From: a virus
Lineage: Duplodnaviria; Caudoviricetes
DNA length: 64,000 nt
Direction: 5' to 3' (one strand)
IMG/VR virus record: IMGVR_UViG_2926558313_000004
Coordinates: 1-64,000 of that record
Positions within the stretch are counted from its first letter, which is position 1; each line of letters starts with the position of its first letter. The notes beneath the pieces are model-generated. The model ran no database searches, was not told where the DNA came from, and saw nothing but the letters and a program-made list of their open reading frames with translations. Of this stretch, positions 1 through 48,682 are shown piece after piece. Position numbers and translations under genes: made by a program.

Positions 1-600
1 AAACAGCTTTAAGGTACAGAGAGCGGCTTTGCCTTCCCAATCTCCAAACACATCGAAAAACTCTGGAAAGTAGCGTTGAATCACATTTTGAATACGACCT
101 TCTGTGATCATAAGCTGTTCAACGAGCTGATCTCTTATTTTGGCGCCTTCCCTCAGTTCGGCATAAATGCCCTCTAAGAGATTCGGTACGGAGTATCGCC
201 CGTCTTTCATCAGCTGTGCGATCACTTTGGCATCCTTGGTATCATTTTTCGTCGGTGAATTGTCGTCGAGTTCTTTACTTTTCTTAACGTGCATTGGGTT
301 CACGACGACAAAGTCGTAACCTTTTGCCGTTAGATAGTAAGCAAGACTCTTCCAATAATGTCCTGTTGGTTCTACGCCAAAAATGACGTGATTCTTCTTG
401 TGTTTTTCTTGGTGTTGCTTTACCCACTCAACGAGGGCTTCAAAGCCAAAGATTCGATTTTCAAAGATCAAACGCTTTCCAAAGTCTAATCCACGATCAT
501 CTTGAGCACGTGCGACATGTTTGTCTTTGGCAATATCAATGCCAATAATGAGAGTTGATGGTGTGATTTGCGAGATTTTGTGATTTTGAGTATAATTCAT
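1..600 (-). CDS. IS110-family transposase/recombinase, N-terminal DEDD domain (runs off window start)
   Basis: Manual translation from ATG at 600: MNYTQNHKISQITPSTLIIGIDIAKDKH...FGVEPTGHYW...KNDTKDAKVIAQL, carrying the DEDD RuvC-like motifs; RBS AAGGAGG upstream. Confidence 0.92.
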   Translation of the reverse strand, partial: MNYTQNHKISQITPSTLIIGIDIAKDKHVARAQDDRGLDFGKRLIFENRIFGFEALVEWVKQHQEKHKKNHVIFGVEPTGHYWKSLAYYLTAKGYDFVVVNPMHVKKSKELDDNSPTKNDTKDAKVIAQLMKDGRYSVPNLLEGIYAELREGAKIRDQLVEQLMITEGRIQNVIQRYFPEFFDVFGDWEGKAALCTLKLF

Positions 601-1126: not shown

Positions 1127-2278
1127 TTAAATTAAACTACTTTTCTTCATTTCTTTGAAAATAGCTTCTGCAACATTTATTACAATGCTATTACCAGCTT
1201 GTTTATAAAGCTGTGAATCAGATCTATCTTTACCTTTATAGAATTCTTGATTTAATGATTCTTTAGCAGTATTAAAATCATTATCTGTGAATCCCATTAG
1301 TCTCCAACATTCTTTAGGTGTTAATTTTCTGATTGCAAAATTATTTTCTAAATATAACCCTGTTTTTCCACCTAACCCTCCTCCATTGGCGGTCTGAGAT
1401 GCTGCGATTCCATTTGAATCATATACACGATTTCCTTGGGGATAATTTCGACTTAAACCCTTACCATCACCAACCCAATCTTTTTCACCAATACCGCCAA
1501 CAAAATTTAATTTGTTTTCTTCTTTCTCAATTACTTTTGGTTGCCTATTTCCTCCTTGCATAGTTGTTAGAGTTGGAGATAAACCTTCCGATGAATAAAC
1601 TCGTTTAATTACATCTTGACCTTTGATATCTAACTCGCCAACAACTTCAATGATCTGTTTTGGTTGTTTATAATCCCTTGCCAATAATGTACCCATCACA
1701 CCTTCTGTACCATATACAATATCGCTTTGACCAATTGTTCTGAACTCTGGAGCAGTTGTGTCTACCGTATTCGGATTATATTTTTCATTAAATTTAAAAC
1801 GTTTTTGTACTTCTTCACTTAAATAGTATTTATCTCCAATCTGCTGCTCAAGTACATCTTTTAGGCGAATCCCCTCATCTTTTCCAACTGGGAAGGTAAA
1901 TTCATTTGCTTCAATATCTTTTCTAATACTGATAACAAAAACCCGTTCTCTATTTTGAGGAATACCAAAGTCTTTTGCATTTAGCACTTCATAATATGTA
2001 TTGTATCCTAACTCATCTAGCATATTGATCCACTTATCAAAATCATCTTTAAATTTCCTTCCTATTAAATTCTTAACATTCTCTGCAATCATATATTTTG
2101 GCTTCTTCGCTTTTGCTATTTTCATAGCTTCCCATAATAAGCTTGAACGAGTATCGCTATTCTCTGAGAAACCATTCTGTCTACCTGCAACTGATATATC
2201 CTGACATGGAAATCCGTAAGTCATTAAATTAAAATCAGCAATATCATTAGGGTTTACTTTAGATATGTCACCTAAATT
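1127..2278 (-). CDS. DNA (cytosine-5) methyltransferase, C-terminal part (motifs IV-X and TRD region), separated from its N-terminus by an inversion
   Basis: GFPCQ (IV), ENVKN (VI), PQNRERVF (VIII), RKLTPKECWRLMGF (IX), KQAGNSI (X); the open frame extends upstream as NLGDISKVNPNDIADFNL to 2278. Confidence 0.95.
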   Translation of the reverse strand, partial: NLGDISKVNPNDIADFNLMTYGFPCQDISVAGRQNGFSENSDTRSSLLWEAMKIAKAKKPKYMIAENVKNLIGRKFKDDFDKWINMLDELGYNTYYEVLNAKDFGIPQNRERVFVISIRKDIEANEFTFPVGKDEGIRLKDVLEQQIGDKYYLSEEVQKRFKFNEKYNPNTVDTTAPEFRTIGQSDIVYGTEGVMGTLLARDYKQPKQIIEVVGELDIKGQDVIKRVYSSEGLSPTLTTMQGGNRQPKVIEKEENKLNFVGGIGEKDWVGDGKGLSRNYPQGNRVYDSNGIAASQTANGGGLGGKTGLYLENNFAIRKLTPKECWRLMGFTDNDFNTAKESLNQEFYKGKDRSDSQLYKQAGNSIVINVAEAIFKEMKKSSLI

Positions 2279-2505
2279 AGAATTTTTATTGAAAAAGAAG
2301 TCTTATAAAACAAAAATAAAAATATAAGGAGTTGTTTATTATAGGAAATTTAAAAGTGTTGTCTTTGTTCAGTGGAATTGGCGCATTTGAAAAAGCTTTA
2401 TCCAATTTGGGAATTGATTTTGAATTAGTCGGATTCAGCGAAATAGATAAATATGCCATAGAATCTTATTGTGCCATACATAACACTAATAAAAATTCTA
2501 TTTTA
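2273..2505. other. Inverted DNA segment bounded by inverted repeats (intragenic inverton)
   Basis: Perfect 13-bp IR TAGAATTTTTATT (2278-2290) / AATAAAAATTCTA (2488-2500), 17/18 when extended; re-inversion fuses the two MTase halves in frame. Confidence 0.9.
2332..2499 (+). CDS. N-terminal fragment (motifs I-II) of the C5 methyltransferase, in inverted orientation
   Basis: LKVLSLFSGIGAFEKAL...VGFSEIDKYA gives SAM-binding motif I (FxGxG) and motif II; RBS AAGGAG at 2326-2331. Confidence 0.93.
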
Positions 2506-2513
2506 TTAATCTC

Positions 2514-2696
2514 TTATTTTTGCCTTTTGTTACTGTCATCCTTCACTCTGCTATAAATATCGGCTCGCCATCCCTTGGTTTCATATCCTTCTTTTACCAA
2601 CTCAGCACCAACAATATATCCACTATTAGTTAAAGCATTTACTAAATCTTCCTTATTGCTATAGCCCCTAATATTTAATGAAATTAACTTGTCCAT
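2514..2696 (-). CDS. hypothetical phage protein
   Basis: ORF with GAGGTG RBS. Confidence 0.6.
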   Translation of the reverse strand: MDKLISLNIRGYSNKEDLVNALTNSGYIVGAELVKEGYETKGWRADIYSRVKDDSNKRQK

Positions 2697-2803
2697 AAAA
2701 AATCACCTCTTTTATTTAAATTCATTTTAGGATCTATTATTTTACACTTACCTTTTTAAAGTGTAAAATAATAACAAGTCATATTCGACATATTTTTATT
2801 GAT

Positions 2804-3590: not shown

Positions 3591-4415
3591 TTATGTAGCC
3601 ATAATTCTACTGTCTTGAATTTTATGTAGATTTTTTTCATTTGTTATATATTTATTTTTAAACCATATTATACTTTTATTTTTGTTTTGTTTATTGAATT
3701 CATCCGTAATTTCTTTTTCTTCATATCCTAATTCATTTAAATGGTTAATAACTTTTCTATAATATTTTTCATCGTTTATACTTTCATACATTATTGCTAA
3801 TCTTACTAGTAAACCAATCGAATGATTATGTTTGACATATTCCAATCCTTTTTCATATTCTGGATAAGGAAGTTCTTTTAATTTAACTTTATGATTTTTA
3901 TCTATTTGATATATGTATCTATAAGTTTTAACGTAGAATGCTTTTAACTTATCGTCTAAGTATCTTCTGTTTTTTTTTAAAAATCCTTGAGGTCTATTCG
4001 TACATTCCAATGGAACCTTATGAAAAACTTCACCGTCATCCATGTCTTCGAAAAATAAGCTTTTTTCATGACCAAAATATTTAAAATTAGACGCTTTGTA
4101 GATTGTACCGCATCCTAATCTTCCATCAGCAAAACTCTGCACATATTTTATATGAGGATATTTCTTCTTGATTATTTTCAAAGATGAGGATATTAGAATT
4201 GACTCTGCATTCTTGACCAGTTCGTCATCAATCCACATCCTATTTAGTTCGATAACACTATCCATACCTAATTCTGTAATTTTTTTATGTGACTTGGTGT
4301 TCATTAAATTTCCAAACACAGCCCCGCCTAATAATCTATTATCCTTAAAAATGCCAATATTTATCTTCCCGAAAGCCGTATTCCATTTCTTTGAATAGTG
4401 ATTGTTTATCATCAT
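3591..4415 (-). CDS. mom: Mom-family (GNAT) adenine-modification enzyme; true start probably near 4490-4496
   Basis: NHYSKK, ELNRMW, NAESILIS, QSFADGRLGCGTIYKASNF resemble phage Mu Mom-like proteins; frame stays open to an AGGAGG RBS at ~4499-4504. Confidence 0.75.
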   Translation of the reverse strand: MMINNHYSKKWNTAFGKINIGIFKDNRLLGGAVFGNLMNTKSHKKITELGMDSVIELNRMWIDDELVKNAESILISSSLKIIKKKYPHIKYVQSFADGRLGCGTIYKASNFKYFGHEKSLFFEDMDDGEVFHKVPLECTNRPQGFLKKNRRYLDDKLKAFYVKTYRYIYQIDKNHKVKLKELPYPEYEKGLEYVKHNHSIGLLVRLAIMYESINDEKYYRKVINHLNELGYEEKEITDEFNKQNKNKSIIWFKNKYITNEKNLHKIQDSRIMAT

Positions 4416-45204: not shown

Positions 45205-46179
45205 CTAAATTTCGTATAACTTCTTGATGTTTTCTATGTTGACATCCTCTTTGATGCCAATAAGGTTGTAATCCATCTTGCCTTGCAGTTTTGATTTTTT
45301 ATGCCCGAAATTTTGAACAATTGTTCTCAAGTCGTTATTTGTTAGCTCCCCTGTTTCTTCATATATATCCTTTCCCACTTTTATCATGCCACTTCTTGCG
45401 ATATTTGTCGGCGTGAGATAAGGATAGTCAAAAAACTTTTTAAGCATTTTTACTCTAGTATAAAGTGTCATATTTCCGACTGGTGCATTTTCATCTAATA
45501 CCCGACCATTATCAATAGATCGGATAATAAAATCATTGCGTATTAATTTCTTTTCTGGATTTGCTCGTTGAAAAACGGATTCTCCGTTATTAACAATGTA
45601 TACAGATTCTTTATAAGCTTCCGTAATTATTCTTAAACACCTATCACTTACTTTTACCTCCCTTTCCATCTCTCCTCTAACTTTTATAATATTATTATCA
45701 AAGTCTATGTCTTTATAATGTAAATTTCTAATCTCACTCAGTTGTGATCCTTTCAATCCTTCAAATAGCAACCGGAAAACAACCTTGTCTTGTCCATTAA
45801 CTAACTTCTTATCTTCTAGTTCTGCCAACTCTTCTTCAGTAAGAAACTGCTTTTTGCTATGGTCAATTAAACGGAACAAGGAATCTCTAGTTAAATTTGC
45901 AATTGGATTAATGGAGCTATTAGAATATCCATGAGCACTAGCCCAGTCTATATAATTTTTAAACACATTTGCTGCCATAGCTATAGAGCCTAATGATGGC
46001 TGAGCCATGTCTCTTAAGGTATCTTCAATTTCTGCTCTAGTAAAAGAATATAGGTCTTTCTGGAGCGCTCTTTCATTTCTTTCAGCCCCTCTTAGCTTGT
46101 ATCTATAAATAACTGCAGTATCTGCATCATAATTTTTTAAAAAAGCTTCTTTGATTTTTTCGTTGTACAAATTAGACAC
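45205..46179 (-). CDS. catalytically degenerate tyrosine-recombinase-fold master repressor (SPbeta YopR/MrpR-like)
   Basis: MYNEKIKEAFL N-terminus, LLFEGLKG..LSEI, PTNIARSG lacking R-HxxR; synteny with yopP/yopQ-like genes. Confidence 0.8.
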   Translation of the reverse strand: MSNLYNEKIKEAFLKNYDADTAVIYRYKLRGAERNERALQKDLYSFTRAEIEDTLRDMAQPSLGSIAMAANVFKNYIDWASAHGYSNSSINPIANLTRDSLFRLIDHSKKQFLTEEELAELEDKKLVNGQDKVVFRLLFEGLKGSQLSEIRNLHYKDIDFDNNIIKVRGEMEREVKVSDRCLRIITEAYKESVYIVNNGESVFQRANPEKKLIRNDFIIRSIDNGRVLDENAPVGNMTLYTRVKMLKKFFDYPYLTPTNIARSGMIKVGKDIYEETGELTNNDLRTIVQNFGHKKSKLQGKMDYNLIGIKEDVNIENIKKLYEI

Positions 46180-47608: not shown

Positions 47609-48682
47609 TTATAAATTCGAATTGAGGTTTCTTAGTAATATAATTTTCGCAACTTTATTACTATTAATTAAGTCCAATAACTCTTCTTTACTTAGCGATT
47701 CTAGAGCATCGCTGTTAAGAAATTTATCGAAATCTAACACACCTATTCTCTTGTATTTATTTTCTTTTATATATCTTTTTGTGACATTGAAATCTGAGTG
47801 ACCTGCGAATTCCATTGTCGCATGAGGATCTTTTGAGTTTTCATAAAAAATAGTAATCGCAGTTCCACGTATGCTATGGAAAGAGACATTTCTTTTTTCT
47901 GAAATATTCATTTTGATTTTAAGTTGATTCATTAGTTTCGATATATGATTCTTGTTAAACGGAAATACTACCTCGTCATTAACTTTATTATCAATTAATT
48001 CTTGAAAAAAGTCTTCATCTACATAATGAATTTTCCTCCGCTGCCCTTTTCCTCTTAATTCGATTTCATAATCTCCTTCTCTTGTGAGAATAAAATCGCT
48101 CCACTTCAACTTTAAAATTTCTTGCTGTCTCAGTCCGGTGTGTAAAGCGAACTTAATCAGCAATCCTTGAATAATTCGATTTTTAAATCTAGGCATTCCC
48201 TCTTTGACCATTGGGGCAATCTTTATCATTTCTTCTACTTCTTCCTTATGGAGTAAGCCGTAATTTACTTCTACGCTCTTAAGCTTTTGCATTTTACTAA
48301 TGAAGCTAATGTCTATATCGGCTAATAAACCAAATTCTATCTTCCTGCTATTTATATAGCTAAACAATCCAGTTATTGTCGTTAACTTTCGTTTTATTGT
48401 TTTATTAACCGAACCTTCATCCTGTAAATGAGCAATAAATTTATCAATATCGCTAACAGTAACTTTAAAATCATGTTCGATTAAATTTTCCAGCTCTTTT
48501 CCTTTTGTGATTTTAAAGAAATGTCTTATGTCACCCAAGTAGTTTTTAATTGTATTTTCGGATCTTCCGTTGCTCTTTAAATACATCATAATTATCTCTA
48601 AACAATTAACTTTATTTATATGGACTAATTGTAAGCTCATCTCTTTCATCCTCCTCAAAATTATATTAGGTTTATTATACAA
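47609..48682 (-). CDS. tyrosine recombinase/integrase with intact catalytic residues (SPbeta YopP-like)
   Basis: SENTIKNY SAM-like domain; TGLRQQE (R), RGKG (K), HSIR, AGHS, TKRY. Confidence 0.9.
   Translation of the reverse strand: MYNKPNIILRRMKEMSLQLVHINKVNCLEIIMMYLKSNGRSENTIKNYLGDIRHFFKITKGKELENLIEHDFKVTVSDIDKFIAHLQDEGSVNKTIKRKLTTITGLFSYINSRKIEFGLLADIDISFISKMQKLKSVEVNYGLLHKEEVEEMIKIAPMVKEGMPRFKNRIIQGLLIKFALHTGLRQQEILKLKWSDFILTREGDYEIELRGKGQRRKIHYVDEDFFQELIDNKVNDEVVFPFNKNHISKLMNQLKIKMNISEKRNVSFHSIRGTAITIFYENSKDPHATMEFAGHSDFNVTKRYIKENKYKRIGVLDFDKFLNSDALESLSKEELLDLINSNKVAKIILLRNLNSNL

Follow-up and report, generated by a model that had tools for sequence, protein, structure and literature searches.

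Why does a single prophage gene lie in two pieces on opposite strands, and can the pieces be brought together again? The gene in question encodes a C5 cytosine methyltransferase and lies near the beginning of a stretch of 64,000 nucleotides (nt) of viral DNA (Duplodnaviria; Caudoviricetes), positions 1 to 64,000 of the IMG/VR record IMGVR_UViG_2926558313_000004. We refer to this whole stretch as the window. It corresponds to C5:3-64002, the beginning of a 197-kb contig (C5) in a draft assembly of 66 contigs. An earlier note on the same DNA had read the arrangement as an inversion inside the gene, between two matching junction sites, that switches the methyltransferase OFF. Our analysis of the sequence leads us to consider it probable that the gene start is a conserved invertible element of the 'partial intergenic' inverton class, which would control the orphan C5 methyltransferase of an SPbeta-like prophage.

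One methyltransferase gene in two pieces

The gene occupies positions 1127-2556 and its two pieces are found on opposite strands:

2326 to 2331, plus strand: ribosome-binding site (RBS) AAGGAG of the methyltransferase, in a leader homologous to the SPbeta mtbP leader
2341 to 2499, plus strand: N-terminal piece, ~50 codons with motif I (LSLFSGIGAF), ending in ...AIHNTNKNS and covering PF00145 positions 1-50
1127 to 2278, minus strand: C-terminal piece, 383 codons and the stop (1127-1129), from NLGDISKV through motif IV (GFPCQ) to motif X

In the Pfam comparison the plus-strand open reading frame 2332-2556 matched positions 1-50 of the PF00145 profile (E 6.7e-9) and the minus-strand frame 2296-1127 matched positions 42-324 (E 6.7e-66). 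Read in order, the pieces make up the whole PF00145 domain, motif I through motif X. Aligned with eight intact homologues, the two pieces are collinear with them and show no insertion or deletion. Six residues separate the H of the N-terminal piece from the NLGD of the C-terminal piece, which matches the homologues, and therefore no base was gained or lost. These results bear out the earlier claims that an intragenic inversion has split the enzyme onto two strands and that turning the segment back restores the reading frame. The codons for NKNS are the repeat itself and are present in both pieces. Past position 2499 the frame of the N-terminal piece runs through 18 unrelated codons to a stop at 2554-2556, and the frame of the C-terminal piece stays open for six further codons upstream (FFNKNS). 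There is no evident RBS before the first ATG (2224) of the remaining C-terminal frame. As judged from the sequence, motif I, which binds S-adenosylmethionine, is separated from the rest of the enzyme in the OFF orientation and no active enzyme can be made.

The length of the re-joined product depends on the start codon. The ATA at 2341, with an ATT beside it at 2338, aligns with the TTG start of SPbeta mtbP, and relatives have ATG or TTG at this place. Starting here gives a product of 436-437 amino acids (aa). The ~439 aa and 56 N-terminal codons given earlier hold if counting begins at the TTG at 2332, which abuts the RBS and is an unlikely start. The ATT ATA at 2338-2343 is either a weak non-canonical start or a first sign of decay.

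Two inverted repeats bound the flipped segment

The boundaries of the displaced piece are formed by a pair of inverted repeats:

2273 to 2290, no strand: left arm TAAATTAGAATTTTTATT, with the intragenic site TAAAT-TAGAAT-TTTTA (2273-2288), on the coding (minus) strand AAT AAA AAT TCT AAT TTA (NKNSNL)
2291 to 2487, plus strand: interior of the invertible segment in OFF orientation, with a 35-nt leader, the RBS and the first ~46-49 methyltransferase codons
2488 to 2505, no strand: right arm AATAAAAATTCTATTTTA, which contains the exact junction palindrome TAAAA-ATTCTA-TTTTA (2490-2505) at a distance of 8 nt from a 60-aa gene's stop

Both reading and a repeat search recovered the 16-mers of the TAAAA-N6-TTTTA type at the two boundaries, with the reverse-complement spacers that had been described. 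The repeat search gave arms of 18 nt that are 94% complementary and lie 197 nt apart. The lone mismatch is at position 2277, leaving a perfect core of 13 nt (2278-2290 / 2488-2500), and the six-base centres TAGAAT and ATTCTA are exact reverse complements (6/6). With up to one mismatch the 13-mer core occurs 7 times in the window compared to 1.66 occurrences expected. Gene halves on opposite strands that join in frame via a repeat are, from what the sequence holds, not a chance pattern, and the inversion is almost certainly real and precise. The sequence also agrees with the earlier proposal of a precise, conservative, site-specific inversion between two sites with complementary centres. If the crossover lies inside the centre, both sites would read alike in either orientation.

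The model that we derived from these observations involves two neighbouring features:

2514 to 2696, minus strand: 60-aa gene of no known family; in the ON arrangement it immediately precedes the methyltransferase
2739 to 2767, minus strand: promoter-like site TTTACA-17-TAAAAT (10/12, a consensus match only), which precedes the 60-aa gene and is not part of the invertible segment

The promoter-like site is the likely promoter of a two-gene unit in which the methyltransferase follows the 60-aa gene. In the ON state this site would be followed by the 60-aa gene, the junction palindrome, a short leader with the RBS and the methyltransferase, all on the minus strand like all of their neighbours, and codons 47-52 of the methyltransferase (N-K-N-S-N-L) would hold another copy of the palindrome that is slightly imperfect. 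A conservative recombination of the two sites would flip a piece of ~215 bp with the RBS and the first ~50 codons. The flip would deprive the gene of its RBS, its start and its motif I and produce the OFF state that is found in this assembly. As both sites would be regenerated unchanged, the reaction could run back. The sites would work in the manner of lox or dif sites, where the centre determines the partner and the direction, and the switch would let the phage hedge between methylated and unmethylated DNA.

The two sites belong to a phage-wide palindrome family

The motif TAAAA-N6-TTTTA is present in 26 copies in the window, compared to 1.63 expected from shuffled sequences. All other spacer lengths from 0 to 14 gave 0-6 copies each and the motif is thus specific to the 6-nt spacer. 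We counted 38 exact copies on C5, all within its first 143 kb, and 62 in the whole genome. The copies occupy the short intervals that separate co-directional genes. Their usual location on the coding strand is just past the upstream stop codon or overlapping it, a few bases ahead of the next RBS. Often the first three bases of the arm are themselves the stop of the upstream gene (TAA, or TGA in a TGAAA variant), and the next RBS follows within 4-10 nt. The right-hand site of the flipped segment (2490-2505) is an ordinary member of this family, and the left-hand site is a one-mismatch look-alike within the N-K-N-S-N-L codons. SPbeta (NC_001884.1) has 34 exact copies compared to 2 for a reversed-pattern control. 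One of these SPbeta copies lies between the yorT stop and the mtbP start, which is the place of our right-hand site, and it is likewise followed by the homologous leader.

All 38 exact copies of the prophage have different centres. In order to compare centres we used the 38 exact and 59 one-mismatch sites of C5:1-145000 in direct and inverted orientation. Only one pair with an exact site among its members shares a centre, and its two sites, 217 bp apart, are those that flank the flipped segment. About 1.4 such pairs would be expected in 145 kb, and we estimate the chance of finding one within 300 bp at ~0.006. Considering the enrichment, the spacer specificity and this sole matching-centre pair in the prophage, the earlier suggestion that the motif is recombinogenic appears reasonable. 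Beyond the invariant arm bases the 38 sites show just a T-rich preference at positions -5 and -4 (0.64-0.67 T).

We found no description of the palindrome in the literature searched; the review PMC8270828 uses the word 'palindrome' once, for GGCC. A known element of SPbeta is the MrpR operator SPBRE, a 15-bp element which PMC10516654 locates at the promoters of ~10 genes, yorM and yorZ among them. SPbeta has no exact palindrome in the ~150 nt upstream of yorM (start 110881) and none in the 66-nt gap between yorY (end 116138) and yorZ (start 116205). As the locations differ, we set aside an identity of the palindrome with SPBRE in this comparison by position; the two are probably different elements.

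Broken and intact relatives among proteins

If the gene start is invertible, the same break may be found in relatives. A search with the 74-aa N-terminal fragment as query returned 320 short proteins, and we examined the best 120 of these 320. Among the best 120, 16 are stand-alone N-terminal fragments whose homology ends at the same codon, and they continue with I-L or I-S after the break (K-x-x-I-L/S). This continuation is the one that the outer arm would encode: TTTTA is read as (A)TT TTA and the TGA-stop variant TTTCA as (A)TT TCA. We also found three C-terminal fragments without motif I (P0012, P0016 and P0029). The N-terminal fragment P0127 and the C-terminal fragment P0012 are each recorded on one contig of 149840 nt.

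Two near-identical lineages have intact as well as broken forms, as seen at the protein level. In the first, the intact P0245 (421 aa) and the C-terminal fragment P0016 (375 aa, opening with LNINKKSNLGD) are identical in 370/374 residues. The N-terminal fragment P0126 matches P0245 in 53/55 residues and breaks after KKS, and KKS is duplicated in both fragments of this lineage like NKNS in our gene. In the second, the first 54 residues of the intact P0249 (349 aa) are identical in the N-terminal fragments P0144, P0246, P0247, P0170 and P0248; N-terminal fragments of this lineage are recorded on at least 14 contigs. The same broken form occurs in unrelated Logan, ENA, JGI and NCBI assemblies. 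Both pieces keep open, conserved frames in diverged lineages, and by our reading of these frames merely inherited broken genes would not do so across lineages as distant as SPbeta is from this phage. A frameshift or a stop codon was rejected as the origin of the relatives' fragments: our own sequence, frame-shifted by eye, runs into an immediate stop, and KKS or NKNS is present in both fragments.

Some further differences were observed among these proteins. Upstream of the shared KKS, P0016 reads N-I-N and P0245 has N-V-D, so that the differing codons are one base apart. In this lineage the repeat may reach ~20 nt with two mismatches, as if the arms were being homogenised. P0185, P0193 and P0221, recorded on up to 155 contigs each, carry a frame shift inside motif IV (...DFMTWRFSLSR instead of ...TWGFPCQDIS). 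This shift looks like the slip of a run of Gs and could be a second, unrelated way of switching. In the full-length proteins P0031, P0032, P0044, P0046, P0065, P0091 and P0095 motif I is replaced by MNKNKNLDKKNWKLI, joined at NFSEIDKY, which is a different rearrangement of the gene start.

Partner sites in relatives examined at the DNA level

We collected 445 DNA loci in all (some fetched twice), 443 of them besides the window's own two copies. The loci came from a scan of genome contigs with P0001 (17 loci), from scans of viral contigs and from one scan of metagenome contigs with P0016. They are distant, with at most ~58% identity to the fetching query over the whole protein. Both pieces lie on the same strand in 388 of the 443 other loci; 19 loci have no N-terminal piece and 36 have no C-terminal piece or a partial one. 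The scans returned no contigs of P0012, P0016, P0126, P0127, P0144, P0245 or P0249, with best identities of ~58-64%, and the viral-contig scan with P0170 as query found no relative. A degenerate pattern of the OFF junction gave 9 matches in IMG/VR with no methyltransferase among them. A DNA search of 61 relatives gave weak partial matches only, and at the thresholds used neither 48 other genomes from the family nor 400 others from the order yielded the N-terminal piece. The N-terminal piece is matched by 44 GenBank phage records. None of these was seen to be split; the strand of both pieces was cross-checked for BCP01 and PK16 only, and in these two phages both pieces are on one strand.

Intact relatives nevertheless allow the partner sites to be compared. 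Among 293 distinct intact loci there are 5 with a site inside the gene, at the homologous codon, that has no more than one arm mismatch, and in two of the five (L368 and L113) there is an upstream site whose centre is the exact reverse complement. L368 carries TAAAA-CTCGAA-ATTTA within the gene and, at -62, TGAAA-TTCGAG-TTTTA, whose TGA is the stop of the upstream gene. L113 carries TAAAA-CTAATA-CTTTA within the gene and, at -463, TAAAA-TATTAG-TTTTA, which is located just before a longer N-terminal extension of this gene. Both centres differ from that of the window. As a control we compared each of six centres with the upstream sites of other loci and found 0 matches among 102-104 non-self sites for each centre. 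Both records are rich in palindromes (43 vs 11 and 11 vs 2). Three loci with three different centres, each matched within its own locus, constitute, on this sequence comparison, the signature of a selected pair of partner sites.

In L113 (a 218-kb IMG/VR record) the would-be invertible segment has a length of ~600 nt and holds an additional N-terminal domain, IDNFIEIHKDHIRVREATKQGY..., that P0073 and P0109 also carry in fused form. In four other loci (L014, L068, L146 and L204) the N-terminal and C-terminal parts are on the same strand, 1.0-1.4 kb apart. The gap in L014 opens just past the catalytic PC of motif IV, a location of the intron or intein type.

A candidate recombinase

Two genes in the second half of the window are relevant to the question of which enzyme could act on the sites:

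45205 to 46179, minus strand: MrpR (YopR)-like repressor with a recombinase fold, which marks the prophage as SPbeta-like
47609 to 48682, minus strand: tyrosine recombinase of 357 aa, YopP-like and of the Xer type, in which R, K, HxxR, H and Y are all present

The YopP homologue shows 30% identity to SPbeta 78805-79710 and matches PF00589 and PF02899. Its only match to a solved structure at E <= 0.001 is XerH (5jjv, E 2.3e-8), with which the catalytic residues align. According to PMC10516654, yopP belongs to the core genes of SPbeta-like phages and its expression in lysogeny is probable. The PF00589 genes nearest to the switch on C5 start 43-45 kb off and are the MrpR-like gene (a weak match of 27 bits) and the YopP-like gene; a third is 106 kb off. 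We infer the YopP-like enzyme, acting in trans, as the first candidate and the host Xer as the second. Taking these comparisons together, we give somewhat better than an even chance to the inversion being made by a tyrosine recombinase that reads the palindromes. A serine invertase was rejected as none is encoded on contig C5.

Prophage context

The sequence identifies the window as part of a large prophage, which we call SPbeta-like because the window encodes homologues of YopP and MrpR/YopR. The G+C content is 31% in the window compared to 46% in the genome. A bidirectional, terminator-like, G+C-rich hairpin at 2804-2821 lies outside the invertible segment, like the promoter-like site. A perfect 15-nt palindrome with a 9-nt gap (2735-2773) overlaps the promoter-like hexamers of both strands upstream of the 60-aa gene and may be an operator. 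At a distance of 1.1 kb from the methyltransferase there is a gene for a Mom-family protein (3591-4415, minus strand; PF25680, E 1.3e-52), and with these two genes this corner of the prophage looks like a DNA-modification module. An IS110-family transposase gene (1-600, minus strand; PF01548, E 3.8e-34) runs off the contig end and is far richer in G+C than the prophage. It probably explains the assembly break. As a cause of the inversion it was rejected on account of its differing base composition, its position at the contig end and the lack of any link to the sites.

Alternative explanations

The shared breakpoint, the coexisting intact and broken forms and the matched centres make it quite likely that we are dealing with a conserved, recurrent invertible element. 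They also lend indirect support to the earlier idea of a reversible switch; flipping within one population and an anti-restriction purpose are further steps that we infer.

Several observations weigh against such a switch. Among the 443 other loci none has its pieces on opposite strands, an arrangement found in the window's own two copies only. The earlier note had recommended checking the orientation in related prophages, and broken forms at the same codon were indeed found among proteins; these broken relatives are known at the protein level. Three of the five loci with an intragenic site (L009, L149 and L288) are without a matching upstream centre, which would mean that the switch belongs to some lineages and not to the whole family. 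L009, with a centre match of 1/6, is the closest relative at the DNA level. For the 378 intact loci we counted 9 inverted repeats of at least 11 nt between the upstream region and the junction compared to 13 direct repeats, and a set of 143 intact loci likewise showed no excess over the direct-repeat controls; this repeat test is informative only when restricted to loci with an intragenic site. The ATA/ATT at the start position could mean that this copy of the prophage is decaying. With regard to the mechanism, only 5 bases per arm are invariant among the 38 sites, which is short for known tyrosine-recombinase sites. No recombinase adjoins the switch and the nearest tyrosine recombinase is ~45 kb away. 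There is no resolvase-family (PF00239) gene on C5, and all six PF00239 matches of the genome come from other contigs. In the records of L113 and L368 the YopP-like query gave no match; one of these two records (G435) has two other PF00589 genes and the other (G436) is a 37% fragment.

One sequencing run (X1) holds the stretch, with a share of 0.37, and two runs of the same study hold next to none of it. X1 yields five short Logan contigs at a depth of 2-3.5, with no joints and neither arm bridged, which is too thin to judge heterogeneity; these thin contigs give no read-level sign of two orientations, a further point against the switch. A 199-nt unitig of X1 (2277-2475) passes the perfect core by one base and agrees with the OFF state.

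A wider reading goes beyond the single locus. It takes the junction palindromes as live substrates of a phage-wide recombination system, with the six-base centre as address and a YopP-type, Xer-like tyrosine recombinase as the enzyme. The methyltransferase switch would then be the first natural reaction product of this system: same-centre inverted pairs would form a programmed methylation ON/OFF switch, and elsewhere the unique centres would allow an ordered exchange of genes between phages without scrambling. We regard this wider reading as possible and would sooner doubt than accept it.

The arrangement might instead be a one-off inactivating rearrangement via a chance inverted repeat of 13 nt. 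In that case the gene is dead, and the fragments in other assemblies are independent accidents at AT-rich, repeat-prone codons. Such an accident would fit the start position and the missing centre match in the closest DNA relative as well as the fact that no reads show the ON form, and the intragenic half-repeat would follow simply from the conserved D/N-K-x-L/S-N-L in AT-rich codons. However, it would have to produce the same broken codon, with its arm-encoded I-L/I-S continuation, in 16 of the best 120 short relatives and leave the frames of both pieces open and conserved in diverged lineages. In one lineage the intact and the broken form differ by no more than 4/374 residues, and two of the five intact relatives with an intragenic site have matched yet differing centres compared to 0 of ~100 non-self sites per centre. 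An accident of this kind is therefore unlikely.

A different explanation for the centres is that the complementary sites are kept for RNA pairing. A long-range stem in the ON transcript would enclose the RBS and start and set the level of translation, and the inversion would be an occasional by-product. Co-variation of the centres would be seen equally in this case, and both arms would be part of one ON transcript, downstream of the promoter-like site (2767-2739). Yet a stem leaves unexplained why the arms fit the phage-wide palindrome and why broken relatives are so frequent. The arms of L113, ~600 nt apart around a whole extra domain, are a poor fit for a translational stem as well. We consider this explanation very improbable.

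An assembly artefact, with the segment truly ON and flipped by the assembler, might be suspected in a 66-contig draft at a locus 2 kb from a contig end and beside an IS110 transposase, but it is extremely unlikely given that the repeat (13 nt perfect, 18 nt in total) is shorter than usual assembly k-mers, that the X1 unitig has T2277 next to the segment interior as in the OFF form (which rests on one base, in a run that may be the source sample) and that the broken form recurs in the unrelated assemblies.

Comparison with known systems

The conserved invertible gene start that we favour is best compared first with its homologues in SPbeta-group phages. The N-terminal piece is 69-75% identical to the methyltransferases of this group (MtbP of SPbeta, phi3T, rho11s, SPR and H2). 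SPbeta mtbP has the same leader and the same place of the upstream palindrome and lacks the intragenic site (...HNVSETLNVGD). According to PMC8270828, MtbP methylates GGCC prior to packaging and gives the phage protection when it next infects. If our reading is true, a temperate phage is able to vary how its own DNA is methylated: the methylated progeny would evade type II restriction, those without methylation would evade methyl-directed restriction, and the lysogen's own methylome would vary along. To the switch serving such anti-restriction bet-hedging we give somewhat less than an even chance. The reading also suggests a function for yopP, a core SPbeta-like gene without an assigned role. 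The palindromes are abundant in SPbeta, a model phage for 50 years, and the present locus offers a simple test case with one matched centre, a distance of 217 bp and an orientation that is readable by polymerase chain reaction.

Inversions that include the 5' end of a gene are a described class, the partial intergenic invertons (PMC10028968, Chanin et al. 2023, citing Milman et al. 2023). In the main text of that paper the word 'methyltransferase' has 0 occurrences. As in that class, a short segment with inverted repeats at its ends covers the 5' end of the gene together with the region upstream of it, and a flip of this segment breaks or rewires the gene. The differences are that the repeats here are two copies of a ~40-fold phage palindrome in which each copy has its own centre, that no invertase gene adjoins and that the target is a phage orphan C5 methyltransferase.

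Phase-variable methyltransferases are known from type I hsdS shufflons, which are flipped by tyrosine recombinases, and from type III mod phasevarions with repeat tracts. In these systems, too, a heritable and reversible change of the DNA switches methylation or its specificity, where reversibility is proposed for the present case. They act on restriction-modification genes of the host and swap specificity domains or slip repeat tracts, whereas here the start of a monomeric phage C5 enzyme would flip.

With respect to the sites, Cre/lox, Flp/FRT, Xer/dif and XerH/difH use inverted arms around an asymmetric 6-bp centre that is shared by the partners, and inverted sites lead to conservative inversion. 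The two sites described here likewise have two inverted arms and a 6-nt centre that is identical between partners, and the gene pieces that they bound show no insertion or deletion relative to homologues. In contrast to lox, FRT and dif sites they have 5 invariant bases per arm instead of 11-13, one arm usually doubles as a stop codon, and they are defined by sequence. Control of the RecV type in C. difficile lets one tyrosine recombinase flip several distant switches. A recombinase encoded far from our switch would similarly act in trans, but RecV serves several switches with their own repeats and here there is one matched pair among ~40 sites. The serine invertase switches Hin, Gin and Cin are found in Salmonella and in the phages Mu and P1. 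The phage-borne invertible segment with two phenotypes is a shared trait. The differences are that no resolvase-family gene is present on C5, the sites are not hix- or gix-like and the target is a modification enzyme and not the tail fibres.

Compared to all of these systems, three aspects are new. The invertible target would be the orphan C5 methyltransferase of a temperate phage, whose SPbeta homologue shields the phage DNA against restriction. Two copies of a junction palindrome that is found genome-wide make up the repeats, and the sole pair with matching centres is the pair that was found recombined.

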